Virus record (IMG/VR): IMGVR_UViG_3300022752_000013
Reading direction: 5' to 3' (one strand)
Source of the DNA: a virus
Lineage: Duplodnaviria; Caudoviricetes
DNA: 64,000 nt
The notes under the pieces were generated by a model. It saw nothing but the letters and a program-made list of their open reading frames with translations, searched no databases and was not told the DNA's origin. Within the stretch, counting starts at the first letter, position 1. Each line of letters starts with the position of its first letter. This document shows, one piece after another, positions 2,224 to 61,080 of this stretch. Both the position numbers and the translations under genes were made by a program.

Positions 2224-2807
2224 TGCCAATTGTGCTTGAACAAACTGCCAAAGGCGAGCGCAGTTACGATATCTACAGTCGTCTATTAAAAGACCGTGTG
2301 ATCATGCTGGACACAGAAGTGAGCGAACACACAGCCAGTCTGCTGGTAGCACAAATGCTGTTTTTGGAAAGTGATAACCCTGATAAAGATATTTCCTTGT
2401 ATATTAATTCGCCAGGTGGAAGTGTAACAGCGGGCATGGCCATTTATGATACCATGCAGTTTATTCGCTGTGATGTACAAACTATCGTAATGGGACAGGC
2501 CTGCTCCATGGGGTCGTTGTTGGCCACAGCAGGAGCCGCAGGCAAACGTATGATCCTGCCCAATGCCCGACACATGATTCACCAGCCATCAGGTGGTGCT
2601 TCAGGACAAGCCACAGACATCCAAATTCAAGCACGTGAAATTCAAAAGATGAAAGAGTATCTTACCAACATCTATGTCAAACACAACACAGCAGGCAAAG
2701 ACTACGATGTACTGAGTGCAGACATGGAACGTGATTTCTTCATGAGTGCCCAAGAAGCAGTGGACTATGGTTTAGCAGATCGAATCATCAATCAACGTGA
2801 CCAATAA
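2211..2807 (+). CDS. clpP: ATP-dependent Clp protease proteolytic subunit
   Basis: [29 protein letters not shown] (Ser), MIHQPSGG (His), MERDFFM (Asp). Confidence 0.97.
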
Positions 2808-4077
2808 TTTAAAAAACAATTTTTGTCCCAGCCCGTGGTTCCATATGAGAATCAACAATGCCGGGCATTATGAATACTGTCGTTGGGCGGCAACAGATCA
2901 ACGCTATTCTGCTGACAATATCTACAACATAACACCAGTTGAGTTTTTTCAACAACGCATGACCAGTGTTAGACAAGAGTTAGCAACAGGTAATTCACCT
3001 CCTGGTTGTGCAAAATGCACACAGATGGAACGTCACAACAAAATCAGCGGACGACAAAAACAACTGCTCAAAGCAGGTGTTAGACTTGAACATTTTGAAA
3101 AGACTCTAGCATCATCGCCGTGGTTGACAGAATTTGCCCAAGGTGGCGAGACAACACAAATGCCCCAGGATTGGCAAATAGATCTTGGCAACTATTGCAA
3201 CGGTGCCTGTGTATTTTGTAGCCCACATTCAAGTTCGCGCCTGGCGTCGGAGTTTAAAAAGATCGGCATCATCAATGATCTACCACCTGCAAACTGGACC
3301 GACGATCCTGTGCGGGTTCAACAGTTGGTTGATACCTTGATCTCAAGTTCACACATACAATACTTGCATTTCATTGGTGGTGAAACACTGATAACTCCCG
3401 CATTCAAAACCATACTTGAGGCTCTGATTCAAGCCGGCTTGAATCGCACGGCCACAATTGGGTTTACTACTAATCTAGGCGTATGGCGCGATGATGTGGT
3501 TGAACTGTTGACCCAATTCCAGGGAGTGAATCTTGGCATGAGTGTGGAGAGTTTTAAGATTGTGAATGACTATGTGCGTTATCCTGTGTGTTTGCCCACT
3601 GTGTTTGAAAGTATGGAACGTTGGTTAGAAATAAGTCAGCAACAAGATTGGTTAGTGCAGTTTAGAACCACGCCCACAGCACTCACAGTTGGTCACATGC
3701 TAGGAGTATATGAATATGCCTGGCACCACAACATTGCTGTGGAAAGTTGTAATTTTTTAAACAAGCCTGAGTGTTTGCGCCCATCAGTTCTGCCTCTGGA
3801 ATACAGACAACGCATTGTGTCCGACCTTGAAGCCTGGATAGACCAGCATCCGGTTGGCAGCGATGTGGTAGTAAACATTCGTGATCCAAATGTAGCCCAA
3901 CAACAAATTGTACAGGATCTACAGAGTTATGTGAATTATCTCAAGGCCGAATCGGATGAAAGTTGGCGTCTGCCAGACCTAGTTGAGTATTTGAAAAGAC
4001 TGGAAGCCAATCGTGGCAACTCAATTGTAACTTATTTGCCTGAATATGAAGAACTTTTTACAACTGCTGGATACTGA
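2797..4077 (+). CDS. Radical SAM protein with N-terminal SPASM/twitch-like Cys domain
   Basis: CNGACVFC (CxxxCxxC), FIGGETL, FTTN, N-terminal CPSPW...YC...CAKC. Confidence 0.88.
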
Positions 4078-12615: not shown

Positions 12616-12993
12616 ATGAACTTAGAAACTATCATAGCCGCCATGTTTACCGGAGTAGGATTTGGTGTGATTGTGTTCTTGCTATTTGTTTGGATAATAT
12701 CTCGACGAATCCAGTTTCGGATTGATTCAGAAATATCGGGTGTGATAGAAAAATTAGCCCAGGATCGACTGATAGCACTCACGGTGGAAATTGACAACAA
12801 TCAGTACTTCTGCTACAATGCACTTACCAAAGACTTTGTATGCCAAGGCTACAGTTTGAAAGAAATCATAGAACGATTTCGTCTGCGTTATCCCGACAAG
12901 GCCGCCGCAATATATGACGGCGATGAAACAGCAGTACAGACACTCAAATCTCAAATGGATCAACTTGATAAATCAGACACAGTGCAATCTTAA
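12616..12993 (+). CDS. Membrane-anchored hypothetical protein
   Basis: N-terminal TM helix; AAGGA RBS. Confidence 0.7.
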   Translation: MNLETIIAAMFTGVGFGVIVFLLFVWIISRRIQFRIDSEISGVIEKLAQDRLIALTVEIDNNQYFCYNALTKDFVCQGYSLKEIIERFRLRYPDKAAAIYDGDETAVQTLKSQMDQLDKSDTVQS

Positions 12994-14074
12994 AGGCACC
13001 CAAAAATTATTTTTTATCCAGTTAAATCAGGCTGCCTCTTGTTGTAGAAGTAATCTTGAATCGTTGCCGGCTGACATGTCAGACTTGCTTGAGCATTGGC
13101 AACTGGAACATGATCAATTGACACAAGGCATTGCCGTTCAAAATTGTTCTGTTTGTTGGAAACAACAGGCCCAAGGTCATACATCTTGGAGACAACTACA
13201 CGGTCACCAGAATAACAACACCGTTGAACTGTGGTTGAACAATTCCTGCAATCAAATGTGTAGTTATTGTAGTCCAAAATTCTCTAGCACTTGGCAACAG
13301 AATATCATTGACCACGGACCTTTTGAAAATATCAGTAGCACAGCCAAATCCAATCTTGACCTGCCACCAATAGCAATAGATCAGCAACAGTGGATAGAAA
13401 AAATAGGTGAATATTTACAATCTCAACCTCCAGAATCAGTTGATCTAAAGTTGTTGGGCGGTGAGCCCTTGATGCAGATTCGAAATTTACAAAAATTAAT
13501 TGATCTTTCTGGTAATAGTATAAATCAACTGATGATAAACACCAATCTCAATCCTCCCAACAATCGATTCCTGCATTGGTTATTGGACACAGTGCCTGCT
13601 TACAAACTCAAATTTGAGATAAGTCTAGACGCCAGTCCCAAATATAATCATGTGCCAAGAGCAGGATTTGATCCAGAACGATTCCATACCAATTTAGAAT
13701 TGCTGATTGAAAAAAATATAAATTTTGGTTTTTTGTCGGTTATGAGTGTGCTGAGTATTTTTGACTTGCCCGACTTTACGAAATGGTCTCAACCATATCA
13801 AGTGGCATTTAACAAAATCAACAATCCGGATTGCCTGGACCCAATTTGGTTACCAATGGAAATCTTAGACCAAATAAACAACCAGTTTGAGCAAGAACCG
13901 CCAATGATTTTCCAAGAATTATACAACAAGCCGCAATCTTTGGTTGACCTAAAATTGTTTGAGCAGTATAATTACTTGTGTCAGTATTTTTCTAGAACTG
14001 GCATAAACATCAAACAAATCGATAATCTCTTGTTCCAACAATATTGGACTTGGCTAGAAGAAAGACAAAAATGA
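12914..14074 (+). CDS. Radical SAM protein (start uncertain)
   Basis: CNQMCSYC, LLGGEPL, INTN, SCC...CSVCW N-terminal Cys cluster. Confidence 0.85.
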   Translation: MTAMKQQYRHSNLKWINLINQTQCNLKGTQKLFFIQLNQAASCCRSNLESLPADMSDLLEHWQLEHDQLTQGIAVQNCSVCWKQQAQGHTSWRQLHGHQNNNTVELWLNNSCNQMCSYCSPKFSSTWQQNIIDHGPFENISSTAKSNLDLPPIAIDQQQWIEKIGEYLQSQPPESVDLKLLGGEPLMQIRNLQKLIDLSGNSINQLMINTNLNPPNNRFLHWLLDTVPAYKLKFEISLDASPKYNHVPRAGFDPERFHTNLELLIEKNINFGFLSVMSVLSIFDLPDFTKWSQPYQVAFNKINNPDCLDPIWLPMEILDQINNQFEQEPPMIFQELYNKPQSLVDLKLFEQYNYLCQYFSRTGINIKQIDNLLFQQYWTWLEERQK

Positions 14075-31057: not shown

Positions 31058-32623
31058 ATGTATCATGTAAAATTAAATGATTCAACTGCTCGAGTACTAT
31101 TCCTTGGCAACAACAATGAATCTACAGATCATCAAGTGTCAACTCTGGCAACAGAACACGACATTGTCAATCATGGACTAGTAATCGAATCTAAGGTTGT
31201 TCATGACCAACCAGGATTTTATCATACCACTGTGGTAGACATTCCCTGGGGCGATTTAATTTCATTTGCATCAAAATTTGATTTGATTGTCATGTTAGAT
31301 CAGCCGCAGGCTCAATGGAGTCATTGGAAATGCATGCAGGCCACATTTAAGTTAATGGTCAAACTGGAACAAATGGGGTGTGATACTGTATTTCGTAACA
31401 ATAAAAATATTAAAAAAATCTTATATTGGTCCGACTTGGTGTACAAAGAAAACAAAAGTTTTTGTATATACCCATGGATTAATTTCTTCAATGACGGAAA
31501 AGAACTTAGATTATGTTCACGTGCTGACACTGCGGTGACCAAAATTGATCAATTTCAAGACTGGAAGTCTGATCCTAATTATACCCAAATTCGCGATTCA
31601 ATGTTACAAGGTCACAAACTGCCAGAACATTGCAAAGTGTGTTATGAGTATGAAGATCATGACATTGAAAGTTACAGGCAATTTGAAACCATGGACTGGG
31701 CAGTGCAATTGGATTTAGAAACAGTTGAAGATCTGGAGAAAATTCAACACCCTTATTTTTACGAAATTCACACAGGTAATCATTGCAACATCAAATGTAG
31801 AGGTTGTCAACCAGCGTTCAGTGAGCCCATTGGTAAAGAATTAAAAAAATTCAATATTGTCACACCCGGTACCATGATGTGGACTCCCAGCACGTCAACT
31901 CTAGATCAAATCAGCATAGACGACTTAGACAGCAAATCTACTGTTTATTTTCAAGGCGGCGAACCCACGATCATGCCAGAAGTTCTGGACTTTATGAAAC
32001 AGTGCATCAAGAAAAATCAGACAGATTTCAATCTCACCATGTGTACCAACGGAGTAAAATTTTCTGACGAATTTTTAGAAACAGTTTCGCATTTTCCCAA
32101 CACCAATTTTAGTTTCAGCATTGATGGGTACGCCAAGGTCAATGACTACTGGAGATCAGGATCCAAATGGGACCGAGTCATAGCAAATGCACACATGATA
32201 CAGAATCTTGGTCATTCTGTCAGTATTAACACTGTGCCGGGTATTTACAATGTGACCAACTTGCATCTGTTGTTTGAATTTTTAGATCGTGAATTCCCGT
32301 TTACTGCTATCTATCTACAAATCAATTACCTGGCTTGGCAGTCAGCATTCAATCATCCTCGTCAAGATCTAGTAGTTGAATCCATGCTCAAATGCATGCA
32401 GACATCTGTGTATCATTCCAATGGTAAAAGTTGCAAAAGTGGTATAGACAGCATTTACAATCATTACAACAATAATCCAGTTTGTGACCTCAAAGATCTC
32501 AAAGATTTTTTTGCATACAACGATCAGTTGGACCGTGCTCGCGGCACAAAACTAGCAGATTACATACCTGAATTAGAGGCCGCAAGAAGTTACATTTTGG
32601 AACTCAATCATGAAACCATGTGA
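31058..32623 (+). CDS. Radical SAM / twitch-domain protein with N-terminal extension
   Basis: FCIYPW...LCS...HCKVC; CNIKCRGC; FQGGEPT; CTNG; FSIDG. Confidence 0.88.
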   Translation: MYHVKLNDSTARVLFLGNNNESTDHQVSTLATEHDIVNHGLVIESKVVHDQPGFYHTTVVDIPWGDLISFASKFDLIVMLDQPQAQWSHWKCMQATFKLMVKLEQMGCDTVFRNNKNIKKILYWSDLVYKENKSFCIYPWINFFNDGKELRLCSRADTAVTKIDQFQDWKSDPNYTQIRDSMLQGHKLPEHCKVCYEYEDHDIESYRQFETMDWAVQLDLETVEDLEKIQHPYFYEIHTGNHCNIKCRGCQPAFSEPIGKELKKFNIVTPGTMMWTPSTSTLDQISIDDLDSKSTVYFQGGEPTIMPEVLDFMKQCIKKNQTDFNLTMCTNGVKFSDEFLETVSHFPNTNFSFSIDGYAKVNDYWRSGSKWDRVIANAHMIQNLGHSVSINTVPGIYNVTNLHLLFEFLDREFPFTAIYLQINYLAWQSAFNHPRQDLVVESMLKCMQTSVYHSNGKSCKSGIDSIYNHYNNNPVCDLKDLKDFFAYNDQLDRARGTKLADYIPELEAARSYILELNHETM

Positions 32624-52593: not shown

Positions 52594-53238
52594 ATGAAGT
52601 TGAAAAGTTTCGGGTGCAGTTTTATTTTTGGCAGTGATCTTTCTGACATTACCACCAAATCAAAAAAATACAGTCAATTGACATGGCCGGCCATAATTGC
52701 CCAACGTCAAGGATTGGAGTATCAGTGTTATGCCAGGCCAGGATCGGGCAATTTACAAATACTAAACAACATACTGGATCAGGTGGCACAACACAGCAGT
52801 GATGTTTATGTAATCAATTGGACTTTTGTAAATCGTTGGGACTATATGTATGCTGGCAACAATCAATGGCATTCTGTCTTGCCTTGGGATCAACATGAGC
52901 GAGCAGAATTTTATTATCGACACTTCCAAGCAGAATACACAGACAAATTAAACAATTTAATTTGGATTGATTGTGCTGTGCAAGCACTACAGTCCGTGGG
53001 AGCAAAGTTTTGCATGACTTACATGGACGAATTATTGCTGGATTCAAGATGGAACATCAGTCCAGGCATTGCACAATTACAACAAAAAATTGCGCCACAC
53101 TTGCATTTGTTTGACGGTGCAAACTTTGTGGCCTGGAGTCAACGCAATGGGCATGCTATTAGTACAGAATATCATCATCCATTGGAACAGGCACATTCTG
53201 CAGCCGCCAACTACCTGCAAAATCACAGTTTGGTATAG
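52594..53238 (+). CDS. SGNH-like (DUF6071-like) protein
   Basis: SFGCSFIFG, TWPA, RPGSGN, HHPLEQAH. Confidence 0.6.
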   Translation: MKLKSFGCSFIFGSDLSDITTKSKKYSQLTWPAIIAQRQGLEYQCYARPGSGNLQILNNILDQVAQHSSDVYVINWTFVNRWDYMYAGNNQWHSVLPWDQHERAEFYYRHFQAEYTDKLNNLIWIDCAVQALQSVGAKFCMTYMDELLLDSRWNISPGIAQLQQKIAPHLHLFDGANFVAWSQRNGHAISTEYHHPLEQAHSAAANYLQNHSLV

Positions 53239-53948
53239 ACAAAATACAATCGATCATTGGCATCCTTTTTGTAGGTATCCAAATGTAAATTGTACTGCTC
53301 AGCAAATTCATTTACTACTTCAAATGTCCAGGGGAATATTTCCACATAAGGTCCTGTTTTGTGTGTGATACCAGGATTGGCACGTAAGTAAAATTTTCCA
53401 CCCTGTTTCAACAAACTCACACAGTGTGCAAAACGTTGCTCAATTTCGTCTCGACTATTAAAGTTGATTGATCCCAGCGCAATAATAACATCGTATTGAT
53501 GCTTGACTCGGTACTCTAAGATATCAACTTCATAATCTGCACAGTTATTGTAAGGGTCAATTCCAACAATGTTCTGTATGCGCCCTTTGAATGGGTGATA
53601 GCCACAGCCCACGTCCAACACACGCTCAGGATTTAATTTGTTGATCTCATCAGCAAGTTCCCAACCTGTGTGTTCATAGTCGCCTGTGCGTGGCTTCCAT
53701 ATTTCACTGAAGAAACGTAGAATATAACGTTCTGAAAGATCGTCTACTATGCTTCGTAATGTACCCACATAATCGCAAGGCAACGATAACTCTGCTTCCA
53801 CAGCGTCCTTGAACTTTGAATAACGTGCTGGGGTCCAGGGCAGGTCTTGTACAACAGTATCAGCATCAATAGAAATATTTGCATACTTGGGTAAATTAAA
53901 CGCTAGTTGCAAATTTTTTGTTAAGAGGTTAAAAATTTTGGTGTTCAT
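53223..53948 (-). CDS. Class I SAM-dependent methyltransferase with N-terminal ACP-like helical domain
   Basis: VLDVGCG, GIDP, YDVIIALGS, LKQGG. Confidence 0.8.
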   Translation of the reverse strand: MNTKIFNLLTKNLQLAFNLPKYANISIDADTVVQDLPWTPARYSKFKDAVEAELSLPCDYVGTLRSIVDDLSERYILRFFSEIWKPRTGDYEHTGWELADEINKLNPERVLDVGCGYHPFKGRIQNIVGIDPYNNCADYEVDILEYRVKHQYDVIIALGSINFNSRDEIEQRFAHCVSLLKQGGKFYLRANPGITHKTGPYVEIFPWTFEVVNEFAEQYNLHLDTYKKDANDRLYFVYTKL

Positions 53949-54000
53949 AAGAAATTTTGGTAAATAAAGTTGATTTTCAAATACTATTTAAGGAGTCCGC

Positions 54001-54978
54001 ATGTCAATCAAAAAATTATTAATCGCCGCACTACTGGCGCCTGTCATGGCATTTGCCTGGGAGCCCACACGTCCTGTCACAGTTGTTATTGGCAACACCC
54101 CCGGGGCCGGAAACGAAATGGCCTTCCGCAAACTGGCTGAAATTGTGCAGAAGCGCAATCCCAACTTTGTGTATGTTGTACAAAACATTCCTGGCGCAGA
54201 CAGTGTGATTGCCAACAACCGGTTTTTAGAAGCCGCCAATGATGGGCACACCATTAATCTGCCCAGCCACATGAGCAGTTATGTCACAAACGACATCTGG
54301 GAAAAGAACATCAAAAAATACAATTACGATTCATTTGTTGATGTGCTCACAATGGGTAAATCACCATTGGTACTAGTTGCAAGTGTAAAGAGTGGGATTG
54401 AAACTCCTCAGGACTTTGTAAAATATATTCAATCGGGTAGAAATATCAATGTGGCCATTGGTGGCGGTGCGCATCGTACTGCATTTGAATACCTAATGGA
54501 CAAGGGCCGGGGCAACAAGGATGTTGTTAAAAGCATCAAATTCAATGGCCCTGTTCCTGCACTGCAAAGTGTGGGTCAATGGGATGGTAAGATAGGAACA
54601 GAATTTGGTATTGTGCCCATTGCAGTGGCCAAATCATTAATTGATGGGGGCAAGGTAAAGCCCATTGGATTTACCGGCACAAGGCGAATGCCACAGTTTC
54701 CTGCAGTTCCGTTATTGAACACAGTCACACCTGGCATTAACGTATATGCCGCGTGGTCAATTCAATTGCCTCCTGGTACATCTAAGGATATCGCAGACTG
54801 GTATCAACAACAGTTCTCAGCCGCTGTTCGTAGTGCAGAATATCGAGAATATACGGATGCCAATGTTATCTTTTATGCTGAAGATGAACTAACTCCTGCT
54901 GGATTAAAACGACACATGGATGACCTAAGAGCCGCCTTTATTCCTGTGCTGAGTAAAATTGATTTAAGTAAAGAATGA
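54001..54978 (+). CDS. Bug/TctC tripartite tricarboxylate transporter substrate-binding protein
   Basis: Signal peptide; WEPTRPVTVVIGNTPGAGNE, QNIPGA, ANDGHT, KPIGFTG..RMPQFPAVP; TAAATA at 53961. Confidence 0.88.
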   Translation: MSIKKLLIAALLAPVMAFAWEPTRPVTVVIGNTPGAGNEMAFRKLAEIVQKRNPNFVYVVQNIPGADSVIANNRFLEAANDGHTINLPSHMSSYVTNDIWEKNIKKYNYDSFVDVLTMGKSPLVLVASVKSGIETPQDFVKYIQSGRNINVAIGGGAHRTAFEYLMDKGRGNKDVVKSIKFNGPVPALQSVGQWDGKIGTEFGIVPIAVAKSLIDGGKVKPIGFTGTRRMPQFPAVPLLNTVTPGINVYAAWSIQLPPGTSKDIADWYQQQFSAAVRSAEYREYTDANVIFYAEDELTPAGLKRHMDDLRAAFIPVLSKIDLSKE

Positions 54979-55595
54979 AATATATCTTTGTGGCTGGCGC
55001 TCCAGGCTCTAAATGGTCAAGTGTAGTAAAGAACATTTATTACAGTTCCGATATTGATCGTTCTGACTATTCTGACGCACGTACATATTATCACGATGCG
55101 AGTGGCCGGCGAGAATTAATGCACTTGGGTGCGTATTTTGATCCTGGAATGGAATTCGGCCATTTCTTTGATCAATTGGATCAATACACAAAAGACCAGT
55201 GCGAAGCAGAATTTGATAGGCCATTTTCGGGCACAGGAATTAGAATTATCAAAAGTCACGTGTTTGCCAATCATATTGATTATATCAAAGCAACATGGCC
55301 TGACTGCCCCATAGTGTTGGTGCATCGTGATGATGACGCTTGTTTAGGTTGGTGGGTCAAGTGCGGCCATTTTGACATCACATATCCACTGTATCATGAC
55401 TATTACAAGAACTTAAAAACAATGGCTGGTATAATTCGCGAGCAAAATGCAGGTATAGTAGCGGCACAACTTCAATATTACGGAAGGCACCCGCTGACAA
55501 ATCACGAGTTGGCCAGTATATTGAATCTTGATTGGCCGCCAGGTGAATACAGCCAAAACTATGGTCAATCAAACATAAGGGTAACAGTGATATGA
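54975..55595 (+). CDS. Sulfotransferase-like P-loop protein
   Basis: IFVAGAPGSKWSSV, IIKSH, IVLVHRD. Confidence 0.55.
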   Translation: MKYIFVAGAPGSKWSSVVKNIYYSSDIDRSDYSDARTYYHDASGRRELMHLGAYFDPGMEFGHFFDQLDQYTKDQCEAEFDRPFSGTGIRIIKSHVFANHIDYIKATWPDCPIVLVHRDDDACLGWWVKCGHFDITYPLYHDYYKNLKTMAGIIREQNAGIVAAQLQYYGRHPLTNHELASILNLDWPPGEYSQNYGQSNIRVTVI

Positions 55596-56242
55596 AATCA
55601 AATTGGGAAATATCAAAGTCCAAGAGCACCTATCATTTTGATCCTAAACAAATAGATCGGCCGGAAACGGTTGTTGCATACTTGGGCTGTATAGAACCCA
55701 CGTGGGCTCACGACTTAACGGATATTGTTGCAAACGCACGACCTGCAACCTGGGCCACACGTGGTTACAAAGGTGAAGGACTGGAAGCGCCGCCGGAAGA
55801 ACTTGAAAAAGAAGAATATGATTTGACGGCAAATGGCATGCCTGCGGACTTGCCTATTTCACATTTGACGTGGCGCATGCCTGAAAGTCTACAGCGTATC
55901 AGTGATGCTTTTGCACTGGAAGACTGCATGAATCGCATACACGTACAGCAGCCTGGAGAAGTATGGAATCTACACATAGATAAATTGCAGAAATGGAGCC
56001 CCGAACACCCTGACAGCATCATGCGTATAATGATTCAATTGACAGCGTGGCAGCCAGGACAGTTCTGGGAATACGGCAATTATCACTACAACCATTGGCG
56101 GGCAGGAGATGTAACAACATTTGACTGGGCCAATATTCCACACTGCACAGCCAACGCAGGCTTTGATCCTCGCGTGACATTGCAATTAACAGGCATACGA
56201 ACTGCCGCAACCATGGACTACCTAGCGGCACTACCCCGATGA
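55592..56242 (+). CDS. 2OG-Fe(II) oxygenase / AspH-like DSBH protein
   Basis: PGEVWNLHID (HxD), WRAGD..FDW..IPHCTAN (distal H), PRVTLQ (R). Confidence 0.75.
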   Translation: MKSNWEISKSKSTYHFDPKQIDRPETVVAYLGCIEPTWAHDLTDIVANARPATWATRGYKGEGLEAPPEELEKEEYDLTANGMPADLPISHLTWRMPESLQRISDAFALEDCMNRIHVQQPGEVWNLHIDKLQKWSPEHPDSIMRIMIQLTAWQPGQFWEYGNYHYNHWRAGDVTTFDWANIPHCTANAGFDPRVTLQLTGIRTAATMDYLAALPR

Positions 56243-56859
56243 AAACAATATTAATCTTAACAGGCCCGCAAGGCGCAGGCAATCACTTATGGAGCAAGAT
56301 ATTTGCCCTACACCCTCAGGTCTCAGGATGGTCAGCACTATTAACGGATTATTGGATAGGACATGATCAAGAGCCATTTGCACAGTACTGGCAGGATCCT
56401 GATCAATTGCGATACTACAGATGGGCTCAGAGCGACTGGTATGTGACGTCAATGAGTGTGCCGTATATGAATAATGGTGTGCCTACGGTGCCCAATTTCA
56501 AAGCATTTGTGTCTAAATTGCAAATAGCAGGTCTACGTATAAAGTTTGCTGTGTTAGGACGTGATCAGAACATAGTTCAAATGCAACAGTCCCGTGTCCG
56601 TGGCGCAACTACATTGAGCACGGCCCTGGCAGAGTTTGATCAATTGGCAGCACCTGTGTTCTTGAGTTATGAATTACTGCATCTTTATGGCCAACGATAT
56701 CTAGAAAATATTCAACAACAACTGGCCTTCCCAATTGCCACAGCAGATCCCAGATTAAAGGATATATTAGCAACGGATGCAAATGCCAAGTATTTTAAAC
56801 CCATTGCACATCACGCCACAGATGATCTTGCACGACACGCTAGTAGAAAACACACATGA
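56239..56859 (+). CDS. Sulfotransferase-like P-loop protein
   Basis: ILTGPQGAGNHLWSKIF, VLGRD, FLSYELL. Confidence 0.55.
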   Translation: MKTILILTGPQGAGNHLWSKIFALHPQVSGWSALLTDYWIGHDQEPFAQYWQDPDQLRYYRWAQSDWYVTSMSVPYMNNGVPTVPNFKAFVSKLQIAGLRIKFAVLGRDQNIVQMQQSRVRGATTLSTALAEFDQLAAPVFLSYELLHLYGQRYLENIQQQLAFPIATADPRLKDILATDANAKYFKPIAHHATDDLARHASRKHT

Positions 56860-57491
56860 AACAAAAGTTACTGGTGTCAGGATGTTCAGTCACTCACGGT
56901 GCAGAGTTGTACAACGGATTCATGCATGAAGAAAATGTCAAAAGATCCTACTCTGCTTATATGTCTCGAGCATTAAACACAGAACTAGTAAATGTTGCCT
57001 TGAGTGGTGCGTCAAATGAATACATATTTCACAGTGTCATGGACCATTTACACAGCGCAAACAATATACATTCTGTTGTTGTGATGTGGACCAGCAATGA
57101 ACGACTGTATTGGAAAAATCAAAATCGACATTGGTTTGTGTTGCCCAATTGGGCCAGTAGCATGATTGATTTAGTCAACTTTGAAATGCACGACAAGCGC
57201 GAGCATGGAGCATGGTTCACCGGCGATAGTGATCAGGCGATAAATGATCTATCTGCGGTGTACCCATTCTTGATTGAAAATTATTTTGACAGCCAGGAAA
57301 TGGCAAAAAAGACTCGGAATTATCGGCAGGCAATCCAAGCACATTGTGATGCAAAACAAATAAAATTAGTGGATTTAACTATCAATGATTTAATAACTAA
57401 TAAATTAATACCACATGTCAAACACCCCTCAGATTCTGAACATGAATCTATAGCCAAATTTATACTGGAGAACTACTATGAAAACACCTAA
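56856..57491 (+). CDS. SGNH-like (DUF6071-like) protein
   Basis: VSGCSVTHG, ALSGASN, VMWTS..R, KHPSDSEH. Confidence 0.6.
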   Translation: MKQKLLVSGCSVTHGAELYNGFMHEENVKRSYSAYMSRALNTELVNVALSGASNEYIFHSVMDHLHSANNIHSVVVMWTSNERLYWKNQNRHWFVLPNWASSMIDLVNFEMHDKREHGAWFTGDSDQAINDLSAVYPFLIENYFDSQEMAKKTRNYRQAIQAHCDAKQIKLVDLTINDLITNKLIPHVKHPSDSEHESIAKFILENYYENT

Positions 57492-58320
57492 ACGCATATT
57501 AATAATGGGCCTGCCCGGCTCGGGCAAAACCTACTTTGCAGAACGATTAAAACGCTATCTCGAAGATCACATCACACCCATCAATGAGCACAGTCTAAGA
57601 CCCATTGCTGATGCTCGAATCACAGTGGCATGGCTCAATGCCGACGAAGTGCGTAGACACTACAATGATTGGGACTTCTCAACAGAAGGACGAGTTAGAC
57701 AAAGTCTGCGCATGCGAGACCTAGCAGACGAAGCCAATACTGACTATTGTATTGTGGACTTTGTGGCACCCTTGGTGGAAATGCGCAACAATTTCAAAGC
57801 AGATTGGTGCATTTGGATTGACACAATTGAAAAAGGCCGTTTTGAAGACACCAACCGGATGTTTGTGCCACCTGAAGTTTATGATTTCCGCATTACAGAA
57901 CAGAACGCAGAGAAATGGGTGGAATTTGTGGGCGAGCACATAATTGAGAATCGCCGTAGACCCACATTCGATTGGCAAAAGGAAACTGTGCAAATGCTGG
58001 GTCGCTGGCAGCCGTGGCATGCAGGACATCGTGCCTTGTTTGAACGTGCCATTGCCAAAACAGGGCAGGTGGTTATACAAATACGTGATTGCCAGGGTTG
58101 GCAAGGCACAAATCCTTTTGCCATTGAGCAAGTTAAATACTTCATACGCAGGGATTTAGATACTGTATACCAAGGTCAATATGAAATTCAGGTTGTTCCT
58201 AATATTGTTAATATCACTTATGGTCGCGACGTGGGTTACACAATCGAGCAAGAATCCTTTGACCAATCGATTACCAATATCTCTGCGACCAATATAAGAA
58301 AGTCTCTGGGCCTTGAATAA
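57478..58320 (+). CDS. APS-kinase (CysC)-like domain fused to HxGH nucleotidyltransferase
   Basis: GLPGSGKT, LNADEVR, DFS.EGR..Q, DFVAP; C-terminal LGRWQPWHAGH...NPF. Confidence 0.85.
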   Translation: MKTPKRILIMGLPGSGKTYFAERLKRYLEDHITPINEHSLRPIADARITVAWLNADEVRRHYNDWDFSTEGRVRQSLRMRDLADEANTDYCIVDFVAPLVEMRNNFKADWCIWIDTIEKGRFEDTNRMFVPPEVYDFRITEQNAEKWVEFVGEHIIENRRRPTFDWQKETVQMLGRWQPWHAGHRALFERAIAKTGQVVIQIRDCQGWQGTNPFAIEQVKYFIRRDLDTVYQGQYEIQVVPNIVNITYGRDVGYTIEQESFDQSITNISATNIRKSLGLE

Positions 58321-58537
58321 GTACCACGTGAGATTCAACACCCGACACAATGGCTCAGAATTGGTTTGGCGCATATTTGAAAATGGTACGGAACATCTGG
58401 CCAAAGATGTGAGATTGATTGGCGAAACCTACACAGAATGCACTCAAGAGCATGGTGAAACCAAATGGAATATTGCTTGTGTTGGGCGAATGGTCTGGGT
58501 AGATAATGTGGCAGTAATTGTCACAGACAAAGATTAA
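58313..58537 (+). CDS. Hypothetical protein
   Basis: KYHVRFNT...WRIFENG...KWNIAC. Confidence 0.7.
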   Translation: MNKYHVRFNTRHNGSELVWRIFENGTEHLAKDVRLIGETYTECTQEHGETKWNIACVGRMVWVDNVAVIVTDKD

Positions 58538-58549
58538 CCAGGGTCAAAT

Positions 58550-59413
58550 ATGAACGCAGTCAATGGTCCATTGACCCTGCCTGAACTTGCCAACCAACAG
58601 TTTGACTATTCTGGAATGGACAGTTTGAACAGATGTTTAGACCGGGAAGTGTTCACACAATGGCCACACTCAATTGACTACCGATACAACAGCAGAGGAT
58701 TTAGAGATCAGGAATGGCCGGAGGATTTAGAGTCTGCTGTGTGGTGCCTGGGTGATAGTTTTACCGTAGGCCTGGGCAGTTGCTTTGAGCACACCTGGCC
58801 TCAAGTGCTGAGCCAACACAGTCAGCGCCGTGTGATCACGGTGGCCATGGACGGGGCCAGCAATGAATGGATTGCTAGAACAGCATGTGATGCATATGAT
58901 CTTGCCGGACCCAGTGACATTGTGATAATGTGGAGTTATTTGCATCGTCGAGAACACCCTGACGCTGACCTGTCGGATCTGGATCGTCGTCAGCATCATG
59001 TGAAGTCAACTGATATACAGGATTTTGAAAATTTCTATTCATGTAGGAAAAAGGTTCGTACACATTGTGCAAATTCACGTGTGATAGAATCTATTGTGCC
59101 AAACTTCAGCAATAACTCCTTTACTGATGCGGCCTGGCAAAAAACACGTGATCCTAATTGGCCAATTCTGTTGCCATCAAGTTCAACAGAATGTCAGGAT
59201 CTTTATCCCGAAATTGTCACAGAATTGCGCACACTACACGGTATAGATATCAAGGGCTTGCTGGAGTTTCAAGCAATACAACAGAGTCATCCTGAGTTTT
59301 TGTGTGATTTAATAAGAGTTGAATATCTGGATCGAGCACGTGACGGACTGCACTTTGATCTCCTCACGGCTGAATGGGTAGCAACGCAGGTACAGAATCT
59401 TTTGAATTCATAA
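58550..59413 (+). CDS. SGNH-like protein
   Basis: YRYNSRGFRD, CLGDSFTVG, GASN, ARDGLHF. Confidence 0.65.
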   Translation: MNAVNGPLTLPELANQQFDYSGMDSLNRCLDREVFTQWPHSIDYRYNSRGFRDQEWPEDLESAVWCLGDSFTVGLGSCFEHTWPQVLSQHSQRRVITVAMDGASNEWIARTACDAYDLAGPSDIVIMWSYLHRREHPDADLSDLDRRQHHVKSTDIQDFENFYSCRKKVRTHCANSRVIESIVPNFSNNSFTDAAWQKTRDPNWPILLPSSSTECQDLYPEIVTELRTLHGIDIKGLLEFQAIQQSHPEFLCDLIRVEYLDRARDGLHFDLLTAEWVATQVQNLLNS

Positions 59414-60605
59414 TTGAATTCCAGAAGTTAGATTCTGTTGATATTTGATTCTGTATTTTATCACTGTCAATGGGCTCTCCAATACCAGGATTTTGTTCAA
59501 TCCAATGGTTGTACACTGTGATCAATTGATCAAAATTTTTGATTATTTGGTGCTTGTCATCTAGTGTTTGTTTTTTGATAGGCGGGCCACTGACCATTAT
59601 GCCTAATTGGATCATTTGATCTATTGTGGCTTTGGCCATGGCATAACCAGACTCATATGGTGCTAGTTTTTGCTGTTTTTCTGAGTCCAGGAAAGGCACA
59701 ATGCCTGTGCGGCTGATCACGTCACGAGTCCAGGTGTTGACCACATGTTCAGGCAGCGCCGCAAGATCTGCGGCAGAATAAACAGGCGGCATTTCTGGCT
59801 GACTGTGCTGTTGATAATCATCAACTGGATCCAGAGTCAACAACAATTTTTCCACGGCCTGTGCGGGCAGACAGGACAATGCACTAGGATTGCTACGGAT
59901 ATAGTGCATTTGATTCCAGTCATTGAAACTGTGCCCGAAATTTTGATCCCAGGTTATCTGTGTGGCCTGTGCGGCAAATACCGGCAGATTTAGGATGTAT
60001 TGTTCCAGTCTGGGAATATCTTTTTCGTAATGGAAATATGCACCAATATCAAAATACTGTTCACTCCAGGTGAGATAATTTTTGTAGGCTGTCAATTGGC
60101 GCTCAAATACTGTGGCATCCAGGTTGATCCCAGATTTGTACATGTCATAAAAAGTGTCTACTTTTTCATACACATCGTACACATTGAGTTTTTTTGTCAC
60201 AGTGCTGAGAGTCATGCTGAGCGCATGCTCAAACACGTTCTCACGTCGGCAGGCAATTACAAAAAAATTCTCATTGAGATAATTATAAAATGGAATTTGT
60301 TCCGCCACGGAGTCCCCGCGGCGCACAATATGATAGTGTGCAAGTCTTGACGTTTTGTAGTGATCCACACTGCTCAACATCTCAGTCACCTGTGCCAGTG
60401 ACTGATGATATCCCCACTCTTTCAAGGCATGTTTACTGACCAATTCTTGATTGAATTCAGGGCTGTAGTATCGGGCCAGGCCATTGGTCAGTTCGTGTAG
60501 GTTGATAACTGGACGGCCAAACGCATGAAATTGCATGTAAATGGTCAACATACGTTGCAACAAAGTACTGCCCACTGCATCCGGTGTAAGAATTAGAACA
60601 TTCAT
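59364..60605 (-). CDS. Sulfotransferase-like protein
   Basis: MNVLILTPDAVGSTLLQR PSB-like loop; CRRENVFEHALS; FHYEKD. Confidence 0.55.
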   Translation of the reverse strand: MNVLILTPDAVGSTLLQRMLTIYMQFHAFGRPVINLHELTNGLARYYSPEFNQELVSKHALKEWGYHQSLAQVTEMLSSVDHYKTSRLAHYHIVRRGDSVAEQIPFYNYLNENFFVIACRRENVFEHALSMTLSTVTKKLNVYDVYEKVDTFYDMYKSGINLDATVFERQLTAYKNYLTWSEQYFDIGAYFHYEKDIPRLEQYILNLPVFAAQATQITWDQNFGHSFNDWNQMHYIRSNPSALSCLPAQAVEKLLLTLDPVDDYQQHSQPEMPPVYSAADLAALPEHVVNTWTRDVISRTGIVPFLDSEKQQKLAPYESGYAMAKATIDQMIQLGIMVSGPPIKKQTLDDKHQIIKNFDQLITVYNHWIEQNPGIGEPIDSDKIQNQISTESNFWNSIMNSKDSVPALLPIQP

Positions 60606-60609
60606 CAAG

Positions 60610-60628
60610 TAGTTATCAACGATAAATA
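60610..60628. promoter_or_regulatory. Back-to-back late promoters TAACTA (minus) / TAAATA (plus)
   Basis: TAGTTATC-AAC-GATAAATA, each 4-8 nt from a divergent ATG. Confidence 0.55.
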
Positions 60629-60636
60629 TTAGCATA

Positions 60637-61080
60637 ATGTTTATCCTACACTTTCTCCCTGACTCTGTTATCTTATGGTTCTGTAATATCTTGTTACTCA
60701 CAGGTATTGTGGCCACTGCGGCAGGCTTTGTTGCACATCGTGTTCCTGTATTATGGCCCTATCAACTGGGCTTTAAACTGGCCGGCATTGCGTTACTAGT
60801 GCTGGGTGTTTACTTTCGCGGCGGTATTGCTGTGGAAACAGAATGGCGTGAGCGTGTGGCAGCAGTAGAGGCACGCTTGGCCGAGGCAGAAAAAGCATCA
60901 GCAGAAGCCAATGCCCAAATTGATTCCAAGACACAAAAACAAACAACAGAAATCCGCCAGCGCATGACATACATCCGACAGTATGTTGACCGTGAAGTTG
61001 TGCGATACAATGACCAATGCGTGATTCCACCACCATTTATTGACGCACACAATCGTGCCGCGGAGGCGCCGCCAAAATGA
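60637..61080 (+). CDS. Inner-membrane spanin (Rz-like)
   Basis: N-terminal TM helices, coiled coil, C-terminal CVIPPPFIDAHNRAA. Confidence 0.75.
   Translation: MFILHFLPDSVILWFCNILLLTGIVATAAGFVAHRVPVLWPYQLGFKLAGIALLVLGVYFRGGIAVETEWRERVAAVEARLAEAEKASAEANAQIDSKTQKQTTEIRQRMTYIRQYVDREVVRYNDQCVIPPPFIDAHNRAAEAPPK

Follow-up and report, generated by a model that had tools for sequence, protein, structure and literature searches.

What would a phage make with one small protein that joins a kinase to a nucleotidyltransferase? The question is raised by a 280-residue open reading frame (ORF) at 57478..58320 (+) of the IMG/VR virus record IMGVR_UViG_3300022752_000013, a 64,000-nucleotide stretch of Caudoviricetes DNA that we call the window. 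A first-pass annotation had read the frame either as a minimal synthase of 3'-phosphoadenosine 5'-phosphosulfate (PAPS) feeding sulfotransferase-like proteins encoded nearby, or as a NadR-like enzyme acting on another substrate. We find that the protein, named K-NT here for its kinase and nucleotidyltransferase (NT) halves, is probably a compact bifunctional enzyme that takes sulfate through adenosine 5'-phosphosulfate (APS) to PAPS, with the NT half as the presumed ATP sulfurylase. It has two domains, the first with the fold and conserved residues of APS kinases, the second with intact HxGH and ISxTxxR motifs and without the nicotinamide mononucleotide (NMN) segment of its nearest relatives, and the module recurs in sulfate-linked genomic contexts.

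A two-domain gene

Judged by its relatives, the frame is no chance ORF, because more than 7,600 proteins of a 90%-clustered database match it at E<=1e-3, on contigs of up to 340 kb, an exhaustive search gave 1,985 K-NT-related clusters at 50% identity, and PHROGs places it in phrog_10255 ("kinase"; E 1.2e-47). The gene is preceded by a Shine-Dalgarno GGAG (57467..57470, +), read directly from the sequence 7 nt 5' of the ATG; its start overlaps the end (57491) of the preceding SGNH-like gene by 14 nt, and it belongs to a series of tightly coupled genes, all on the same strand. The product is small and soluble-looking, and its AlphaFold model has a mean pLDDT (predicted local distance difference test) of 92. 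The composition first proposed for it, a CysC-like P-loop kinase followed by a domain bearing GRWQPWHAGH, is borne out by the ORF, by a Pfam APS_kinase match and by the motifs.

A kinase domain of the APS-kinase type

The APS-kinase-like P-loop domain spans residues 1-160 (57478..57957, +), as delimited by Pfam, Foldseek and alignment with CysC. Its match to Pfam APS_kinase (PF01583) has an E of 9.6e-6 and covers residues 6-107 only; the score of 26.1 bits stands against a gathering cut-off of 21.1, and closer family members reach 61 bits. Pfam KTI12 also matches the N-terminal half of the protein. When the full model was compared with the PDB by Foldseek, the top 50 matches were nearly all APS kinases or kinase domains of PAPS synthases, the two exceptions being gluconate kinase, with TM-scores (target) of 0.55-0.76 and sources that include human PAPSS1, M. 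tuberculosis CysC and the Archaeoglobus, Arabidopsis and Penicillium APS kinases.

The motifs of this half are the P-loop (G11-T18), LNAD (53-56), R59, DWDFS (64-68), R72, R78, FVAP (95-98) and RFEDTN (121-126); alignment with canonical CysC leaves G11, L12, G16, K17, D56, R59, F67, R72, R78, P98 and R103 invariant. In M. tuberculosis CysC, Lys456 is a P-loop residue, Asp480 is the catalytic base at the APS 3'-OH, Arg483 and Arg497 grip the phosphosulfate, and Phe492 and Phe576 sandwich the APS adenine (PMC4373884). These residues correspond in K-NT to K17, to D56, to R59 and R72, and to F67 and the conserved F/Y122, respectively. Besides the P-loop, the catalytic Asp, the two phosphosulfate Arg and the two adenine-stacking Phe, K-NT keeps a FISP-like strand and the fold of CysC (M. 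tuberculosis 4rfv/4bzp, human 2ofx), although it is only ~25% identical to the canonical enzymes. Because the CysC substrate residues are kept while the lid over the active site is reduced, this half is, as far as sequence can tell, a trimmed APS-kinase homologue with an intact APS site. A lineage-specific insertion of ~20 residues (~31-50; 57568..57627, +) lies behind the P-loop helix; it is missing from most family members in the alignment, and pLDDT drops to 70-74 there.

A shortened nucleotidyltransferase domain

The second half (residues 163-280; 57964..58317, +) was delimited by a profile search against PDB sequences, AlphaFold 2 and VIA-align as a compact domain of the HIGH nucleotidyltransferase superfamily; counted over residues 168-280 it has ~113 residues, in agreement with the first estimate of about 110. 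The HxGH nucleotide-binding/catalytic motif GRWQPWHAGH (175-184; 58000..58029, +) stands near its start, with G175, R176, Q178, H181 and H184 invariant across family alignments, and the second signature of these enzymes, of the ISxTxxR type, is ISATNIR (268-274; 58279..58299, +), in which R274 is invariant. HMMER aligns both motifs with the archaeal NMNAT structure 1f9a, pairing ISATNIR with SGTEIRR; the NMNAT/NadM signature recognised at first pass is present. Between the two lies YGRDVGY (248-254; 58219..58239, +), a family-specific invariant G-R..G motif that stands where NMNAT has YSGN. R250 within it, like R203, is invariant or nearly so and family-specific, NMNAT having small residues at both positions, and the motif is a candidate anion site that might hold sulfate.

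Domain models place residues 173-241 nearest archaeal NMNAT/NadM (NCBIfam TIGR01527 and NF002243, E 2e-6 to 4e-6), with scores far under the curated cut-offs (26.5 vs 181.2 bits; 27.6 vs 127 bits); Pfam gives a faint CTP_transf_like match at residues 175-204 and no match of K-NT to PF01747 (Sat) at E<=0.01. The isolated domain was modelled with a pLDDT of 89.6. Foldseek matched this model to NadM, NMNAT and PPAT over ~77 residues, and VIA-align gave Z-scores of 9.9 for NMNAT, NadM and PPAT, 8.9 for NadR and 8.7 for Thermus ATP sulfurylase 1v47, which produced the longest alignment (114/121 residues); other ATP sulfurylases scored 5.6-6.3.

With archaeal NMNAT/NadM (MJ0541 1f9a, 1ej2, 2qjt; TIGR01527) the domain shares GRFQPFHxGH, (S/I)xTxxR, NPF and the first three strands, but it is ~55 residues shorter than 1f9a: gone are the ~18-residue segment past strand 3, with its helix, one further helix before GYEV, and the C-terminal helical extension. 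The post-strand-3 segment is the part that we take to bear the nicotinamide-stacking Trp, and with it NMN binding, in NMNAT. Because the motifs are kept and these segments lost, the domain looks like a HIGH-superfamily enzyme that derives from NMNAT, with its catalytic apparatus intact and its acceptor site much reduced; its fold alone names no acceptor.

Canonical CysC in place of the divergent kinase

The alignment of 46 family members leaves K17, R59, F67, G175, R176, Q178, H181, H184, G249, R250, G253 and R274 invariant, with GLPGSGKT, NADxVR, DWDFS, GRxRQAxRM, DFVCPT and RFxDTN conserved in the kinase half and GRFQPFHxGH, NP, PNI, YGRDVGY and ISATxIR in the NT half. Five architectures occur: K-NT itself; NT followed by a divergent kinase (P0208); separate, overlapping kinase and NT genes; DUF4118-kinase-NT; and NT joined to a canonical CysC. 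The NT catalytic motifs are invariant in the phage, split and CysC-fused forms alike.

The last architecture bears on the kinase. Its example P0231 (311 aa), found as an identical protein in four samples, consists of an NT domain and a canonical CysC (PF01583 E 5.7e-63) with all CysC motifs. Such fusions of ~310 aa (L006, an OCS116 single-cell genome, 10001-10933; also P0231 and P0271-P0389) form more than 120 clusters at 90% identity in marine metagenomes and metagenome-assembled genomes (MAGs), Tara and NCBI MAGs included, and their carriers include the OCS116 alphaproteobacterial single-cell genome and a gammaproteobacterial MAG. Because a true CysC thus substitutes for the divergent kinase, we read the kinase half of K-NT as an APS kinase.

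Cultured phages carry the gene at 34-40% identity: Xylella phages Sano and Salvo, Stenotrophomonas phages Suzuki and DLP6, and Xanthomonas and Clavibacter phages, where it is currently annotated as "kinase", "adenylylsulfate kinase" or "hypothetical". A literature search returned no description of the kinase-NT fusion, none that links DUF2061 (a neighbour described below) to sulfate metabolism, and none of operons of the kind that follow in which an ATP sulfurylase is missing.

The neighbourhood of the marine NT-CysC fusions also includes TPR/2OG-FeII_Oxy_5 proteins and a transporter of the POT family, with two large genes for sulfotransferases ~16-19 kb off on the same contig.

Sulfate-linked loci in bacteria

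Among 401 alphaproteobacterial genomes surveyed, 10 carry the NT domain strongly, as do none of 400 other Pseudomonadota genomes; Sat is absent from all 10 and from a further genome, G011.

Two genomes, both of 1.1-1.2 Mb (G188 and the syntenic G305), have an operon whose genes overlap or nearly abut. It runs from CbiX through a tetrapyrrole (siroheme) methylase, a sulfite reductase (NIR_SIR), CysH and DUF2061 to an APS-kinase-like protein of 167 aa and, last, an NT protein of 118 aa. The kinase-like protein is 44% identical (E 2e-44) to the kinase half of the window's protein and the NT protein 52% identical (E 5e-44) to its NT half. Neither genome has Sat or CysD, and in G188 the kinase-like gene is the sole APS_kinase match of the genome. 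The cluster is an assimilatory sulfate-reduction operon in which the kinase and NT pair is the only candidate for sulfate activation.

Other loci pair the module with a sulfotransferase. In G157, a single 2.06-Mb contig, K-NT is followed 12 bp on by a Sulfotransfer_3 protein (E 1.7e-18) that is the genome's sole PF13469 match; K-NT is its sole APS-kinase-like gene, and Sat and CysD are both absent. The sole PAPS_reduct match of G157, a 398-aa PAPS_reduct+DUF3440 protein (L191 916-2112, -), is no CysD: its architecture differs, and it is unrelated to sulfate activation there. In G151, which has no Sat, CysD or canonical CysC, a strong sulfotransferase lies 9 kb from the module on the same contig. 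G001 encodes an NT-CysC fusion, and the same contig bears two strong sulfotransferases. In none of the 16 streamlined genomes of its order (G001, G003-G017; 1.0-1.6 Mb) is there a Sat or a real CysD or CysH, a lack of the sort described for SAR11, and four of them encode strong PF13469 sulfotransferases.

Two loci have surroundings of another kind. K-NT of G151 (L188 4106-9205) is translationally coupled to an AMP-binding (acyl-adenylate-forming) enzyme, with a short-chain dehydrogenase/reductase (SDR) and an ATP-binding cassette exporter adjoining, and the region looks like a biosynthetic cluster. In G367 (L186 5328-8384) a split pair of kinase-like (135 aa) and NT (124 aa) genes has a Rieske ring-hydroxylating oxygenase on one side and a HalD/WelO5-like halogenase on the other, which may be a natural-product tailoring context.

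Sulfotransferase neighbours in phages

For viral contexts we took the best 80 of 581 viral-contig relatives (64-92% identity) with their flanks and grouped all the ORFs around K-NT into families. The family present in most loci, 27 in all, is a bona fide sulfotransferase, above cut-off for both PF13469 (E 4.8e-16) and PF00685 (1.1e-9). A further 11 loci, none of them among the 27, have homologues of the sulfotransferase-like genes that the window itself encodes, and BLAST found no similarity between the two families. In all 38 of these 80 loci the sulfotransferase or sulfotransferase-like gene lies <=3.8 kb from K-NT, and in 15 of them <=84 bp; arrangements vary, with 4-nt overlaps, one or two copies, and positions upstream or downstream.

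Another link between phage and bacterial loci is DUF2061, a small membrane protein of 67-95 aa that in the bacterial operon stands between CysH and the kinase-like gene. Its gene (Pfam E 3.6e-21) occurs in 16 of the 80 viral loci (L088-L167) and immediately adjoins K-NT in those inspected (for example at L138:10824-11027); the phage proteins are 42-58% identical to that of the operon. Another DUF2061 gene lies at L184:7285-7551. The module seems to have in DUF2061 a third, uncharacterised component; tblastn found no copy in the window. Altogether 48 of the 80 loci have at least one sulfotransferase, sulfotransferase-like or DUF2061 neighbour.

In the window, three neighbours are candidate PAPS consumers. 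The first (54975..55595, +; 206 aa) matches Pfam Sulfotransfer_3 at E 4e-4, below cut-off, and its nearest clusters in the ESM-Atlas, a comparison by language model, are sulfotransferase families (score 0.95). The second (56239..56859, +; 206 aa) begins with an N-terminal GPQGAGNHLW and has sulfotransferases as its nearest named ESM-Atlas clusters (0.94); hhalign gives it 60% probability over the N-terminal 30 residues alone. The third (59364..60716, -; 413-450 aa, depending on an uncertain start codon) has no Pfam match and falls nearest Stf0/Sulfotransfer_3 in ESM-Atlas (0.95-0.96).

Proposed pathway and comparison with known enzymes

Four independent linkages tie the module to APS and PAPS: it is fused to canonical CysC, it belongs to a sulfate-reduction operon, it adjoins sulfotransferases in phages as well as bacteria, and in both it has DUF2061 as a partner. 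A known ATP sulfurylase is missing from several carriers that nevertheless consume APS or PAPS, which leaves the NT domain, with its catalytic motifs intact, as the candidate for that enzyme. These linkages, the CysC substitution and the missing sulfurylases together make formation of APS by NT, then of PAPS by the kinase, the most likely course. The PAPS-synthase branch of the first-pass annotation thus gains from the CysC fusions, the operon without Sat or CysD, the sulfotransferase adjacency and the kinase fold and residues; the part of it that we infer is that the small domain is an ATP sulfurylase and that the pathway ends at PAPS, not at APS.

In the proposed scheme, the NT domain would adenylylate sulfate (ATP + sulfate -> APS + pyrophosphate), and the kinase domain would phosphorylate the APS 3'-OH to give PAPS, which would also draw on the first, unfavourable reaction. 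In the window, the three sulfotransferase-like enzymes of the same tightly coupled cluster would use this PAPS, and the phage would thereby need no supply from its host, in which APS may be scarce and PAPS absent.

A close analogue is the animal PAPS synthase (PAPSS1/2, 1x6v), whose likeness had been pointed out at first pass: it is the top Foldseek match of the whole K-NT model and shares with it the order of an N-terminal APS kinase and a C-terminal HxxH-type nucleotidyltransferase, as well as the proposed two-step chemistry. It is, however, a protein of ~620 aa with a Sat-type ATP sulfurylase (PF01747) that carries GRDHAG and a PUA-like domain, whereas the second domain of K-NT is NMNAT-like and has 113 aa. 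Sat itself (PF01747; 1v47, 1j70) also belongs to the HIGH superfamily, with a Rossmann-like fold, and the Thermus enzyme aligns with NT, at a lower Z than NMNAT or PPAT; the Sat motifs are HxxH, a GRD-containing loop and an ISGTxxR-like stretch, and Sat-CysC fusions exist (Aquifex 2gks). Sat has ~390 aa with an N-terminal PUA-like domain, which K-NT lacks, and a catalytic domain of ~200 residues plus extra domains, against the ~110 of an NT domain that has no Sat sequence match. NT is unrelated to CysDN, in which a PP-loop CysD works with the GTPase partner CysN. NadR (1lw7, 6gye) likewise joins a HIGH nucleotidyltransferase to a P-loop kinase for consecutive steps, but in the opposite order, with an AAA_28-type kinase and in contexts of nicotinamide adenine dinucleotide (NAD) metabolism; the kinase of K-NT is of the APS-kinase type and has no AAA_28 match.

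What is new in our proposal is a PAPS-synthase-like bifunctional enzyme whose sulfurylase would sit in a different branch of the HIGH superfamily. To our knowledge, the established ATP sulfurylases are of two kinds only, Sat and CysDN. We put at about even the chance that the 110-residue NMNAT-derived domain is a third, minimal class, part of a portable module with a lid-trimmed kinase and often DUF2061, which serves as the sole APS/PAPS route in some streamlined marine Alphaproteobacteria that lack Sat and CysDN and has been taken up by many phages. Were this so, the acquirers would be T4-like freshwater and marine myoviruses and Xylella and Stenotrophomonas phages, and phage-directed sulfation would be widespread. 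An NT domain that performs the sulfurylase reaction would be a new enzyme, far smaller than the known ones, for the step with which every use of sulfate begins; genome-based calls of sulfate assimilation would change, in that small marine bacteria scored as unable may activate sulfate, and phages would own a self-contained supply of PAPS together with sulfotransferases, implying an unstudied sulfation during infection whose presumed substrates are the virion, the host envelope or small molecules. The family is very large, with thousands of metagenomic members under uninformative labels.

Points of doubt and alternative explanations

Several observations weigh against a PAPS synthase. Those on the NT side concern kinship: a profile built from 39 NT domains and searched against PDB sequences matched NMNAT 1f9a (E 3e-12), NadM 2qjt (1.4e-11), NadR (1.5e-4) and PPAT (0.02), and found no ATP sulfurylase at E<=10; nor was any ATP sulfurylase among the Foldseek top 50 for the isolated domain. 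The strong part of the profile alignment spans just the first 70-80 residues of the domain, and a weak second segment pairs GY..ISATxIR with GYEV..SGTEIRR of NMNAT. On the kinase side, the first Asp of the CysC LDGD is usually replaced, giving xNAD (Asn 65%, Asp 28% across the family). The full CysC lid of ~30 residues carries the transition-state Lys562 and the ATP-stacking Arg559; the lid of K-NT is ~20 residues shorter and has no conserved counterpart of Lys562, its positions 118-120 being variable and R121 conserved in just 59% of sequences.

The genomic record adds further doubts. CysD is present in three of the 10 NT-bearing alphaproteobacterial genomes (G237, G240 and G376), and G002 likewise has both CysD and the module, so that the module is not always the sole route to APS. 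The proportion with CysD, 3/10 against 223/391 of the other alphaproteobacterial genomes, does not differ significantly (Fisher p = 0.11); the depletion is suggestive only, and we therefore rely on individual loci. In the G188 operon, CysH has the CC...CxxC and ECGIH cysteines of iron-sulfur (Fe-S) APS reductases; if that enzyme uses APS only, it needs no PAPS, and this operon would have no need of the kinase. Among the relatives of G001, three encode sulfotransferases and no detectable source of PAPS, which shows that gaps in MAGs can mimic holes in a pathway.

The sulfotransferase link has limits of its own. The window's three neighbours are weakly supported as sulfotransferases, their hhalign matches to the bona fide phage family being weak (1-60% probability) and over short segments. 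Sano, DLP6 and a complete 383-kb viral relative carry the gene without a PF13469 sulfotransferase or a PAPS reductase, so the linkage is not universal, and in these phages the module may instead boost the host's sulfur assimilation. The earlier idea that the enzyme feeds neighbouring sulfotransferase-like proteins thus suits the window and about half of the related phage loci, and fails for Sano and DLP6, where no sulfotransferase is recognisable.

If the sulfurylase half of the proposal is wrong, K-NT could be an APS kinase only, drawing on APS from the CysDN or Sat of the host, with NT as a regulatory or scaffolding binder of ATP, APS or PAPS, or engaged in some other adenylyl transfer. This is unlikely, though of the alternatives it survives best. 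It would fit the well-conserved kinase residues, the absence of ATP sulfurylase sequence similarity in NT and the presence of CysD alongside the module in G237, G376, G240 and G002 (in G237 and G376 K-NT is the sole APS-kinase-like gene), and fungal ATP sulfurylase offers a precedent for a pathway domain turned regulator. It leaves unexplained why the HxGH His and the ISxTxxR Arg are invariant in ~85 aligned sequences, which is unusual after catalytic loss, why five genomes (G157, G151, G188, G305 and G001) have consumers of APS or PAPS near the module and no known ATP sulfurylase, and why a stand-alone NT gene is kept as its own ORF in a sulfate-reduction operon.

Conversely, the kinase half might not be a kinase of APS: in a two-domain ATP sulfurylase whose product is APS, the P-loop domain would bind APS or spend ATP to drive or gate the reaction, as the GTPase CysN does. 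The shortened lid without a Lys562 equivalent and the Fe-S-type CysH of G188 and G305 point this way, yet we think it quite unlikely, since abundant fusions have canonical CysC in place of the divergent kinase, implying that the two do the same job, since D56, the catalytic base, is retained together with the residues that bind APS, and since the neighbouring sulfotransferases require PAPS, not APS. PAPS is also a substrate of some Fe-S CysH enzymes, the one from B. subtilis among them.

It is improbable that the module acts as an adenylyltransferase and 3'-kinase on some other phosphorylated or anionic substrate, such as dephospho-coenzyme A or a similar compound, selenate or another oxyanion, to make a donor other than PAPS. 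PPAT ties with NMNAT as the best fold match (Z 9.9), APS kinase and dephospho-coenzyme A kinase both phosphorylate an adenosine 3'-OH, and the modules of G151 and G367 lie in natural-product-like surroundings, with an AMP-binding enzyme and an SDR near the one and a Rieske oxygenase and a halogenase-like protein near the other; against this, the canonical CysC fusions, the operon with sulfite reductase and CysH, and the sulfotransferase adjacency are all specific to sulfate, and NT is smaller than PPAT and seems to have no obvious pantetheine site.

Least probable of all is the other branch of the first-pass annotation, a NadR-like salvage enzyme in which a kinase of nicotinamide riboside or another nucleoside and an NMN adenylyltransferase restore NAD during infection: phages do carry NadR, NadM and NadV (PMC9503650), and the closest sequence and fold relatives of NT, archaeal NMNAT, NadM and NadR, vindicate that branch as to ancestry, but we rejected it as the main explanation because the likeness is confined to the ATP-binding half (alignments of ~75 residues), the NMN-binding part and the C-terminal helices are lost, the NMNAT cut-offs are missed widely (26.5 vs 181 bits), the kinase is APS-kinase-like rather than of the AAA_28 type, and all informative contexts are sulfate-related, with no NAD genes in the loci examined.

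Surroundings of the gene in the window

The window belongs to a large uncultured T4-like phage: it encodes a GH19-type endolysin, a clamp-loader-like AAA protein and radical SAM genes, and gp15, neck and PhoH genes are present in its phage relatives. Megablast with 14 kb of the window found no near match among known deposited phages. The cluster around K-NT (52594-60716), of a type common to ~10 of the 80 related viral loci, also encodes three SGNH/GDSL-like proteins (two with weak Pfam matches), an S-adenosylmethionine methyltransferase-like protein and a TctC/Bug periplasmic binding protein (PF03401, E 2.4e-17). A 216-aa protein of the cluster, called a 2-oxoglutarate oxygenase at first pass, has no Pfam match.

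Oxygenase-like genes seem to recur near the module, in Sano, DLP6, the window cluster and, as 2OG-FeII_Oxy_5, near the marine NT-CysC fusions; the 'cysteine dioxygenase' gp28 of Sano (L001 2205-2882) and the 'Fe(II)-dependent oxygenase' of DLP6 (L002 4471-5022) both lie within 1-3 kb of K-NT. Overlapping the end of K-NT in the window is a 74-aa ORF (58313-58537, +) with homologues in 14 of the 80 related viral loci; it has no Pfam family, is not DUF2061, and may be a conserved small partner or merely a syntenic neighbour. Elsewhere, the window encodes three radical SAM domain proteins with PHROG and Pfam matches, at 2797-4077, 12914-14074 and 31058-32623.

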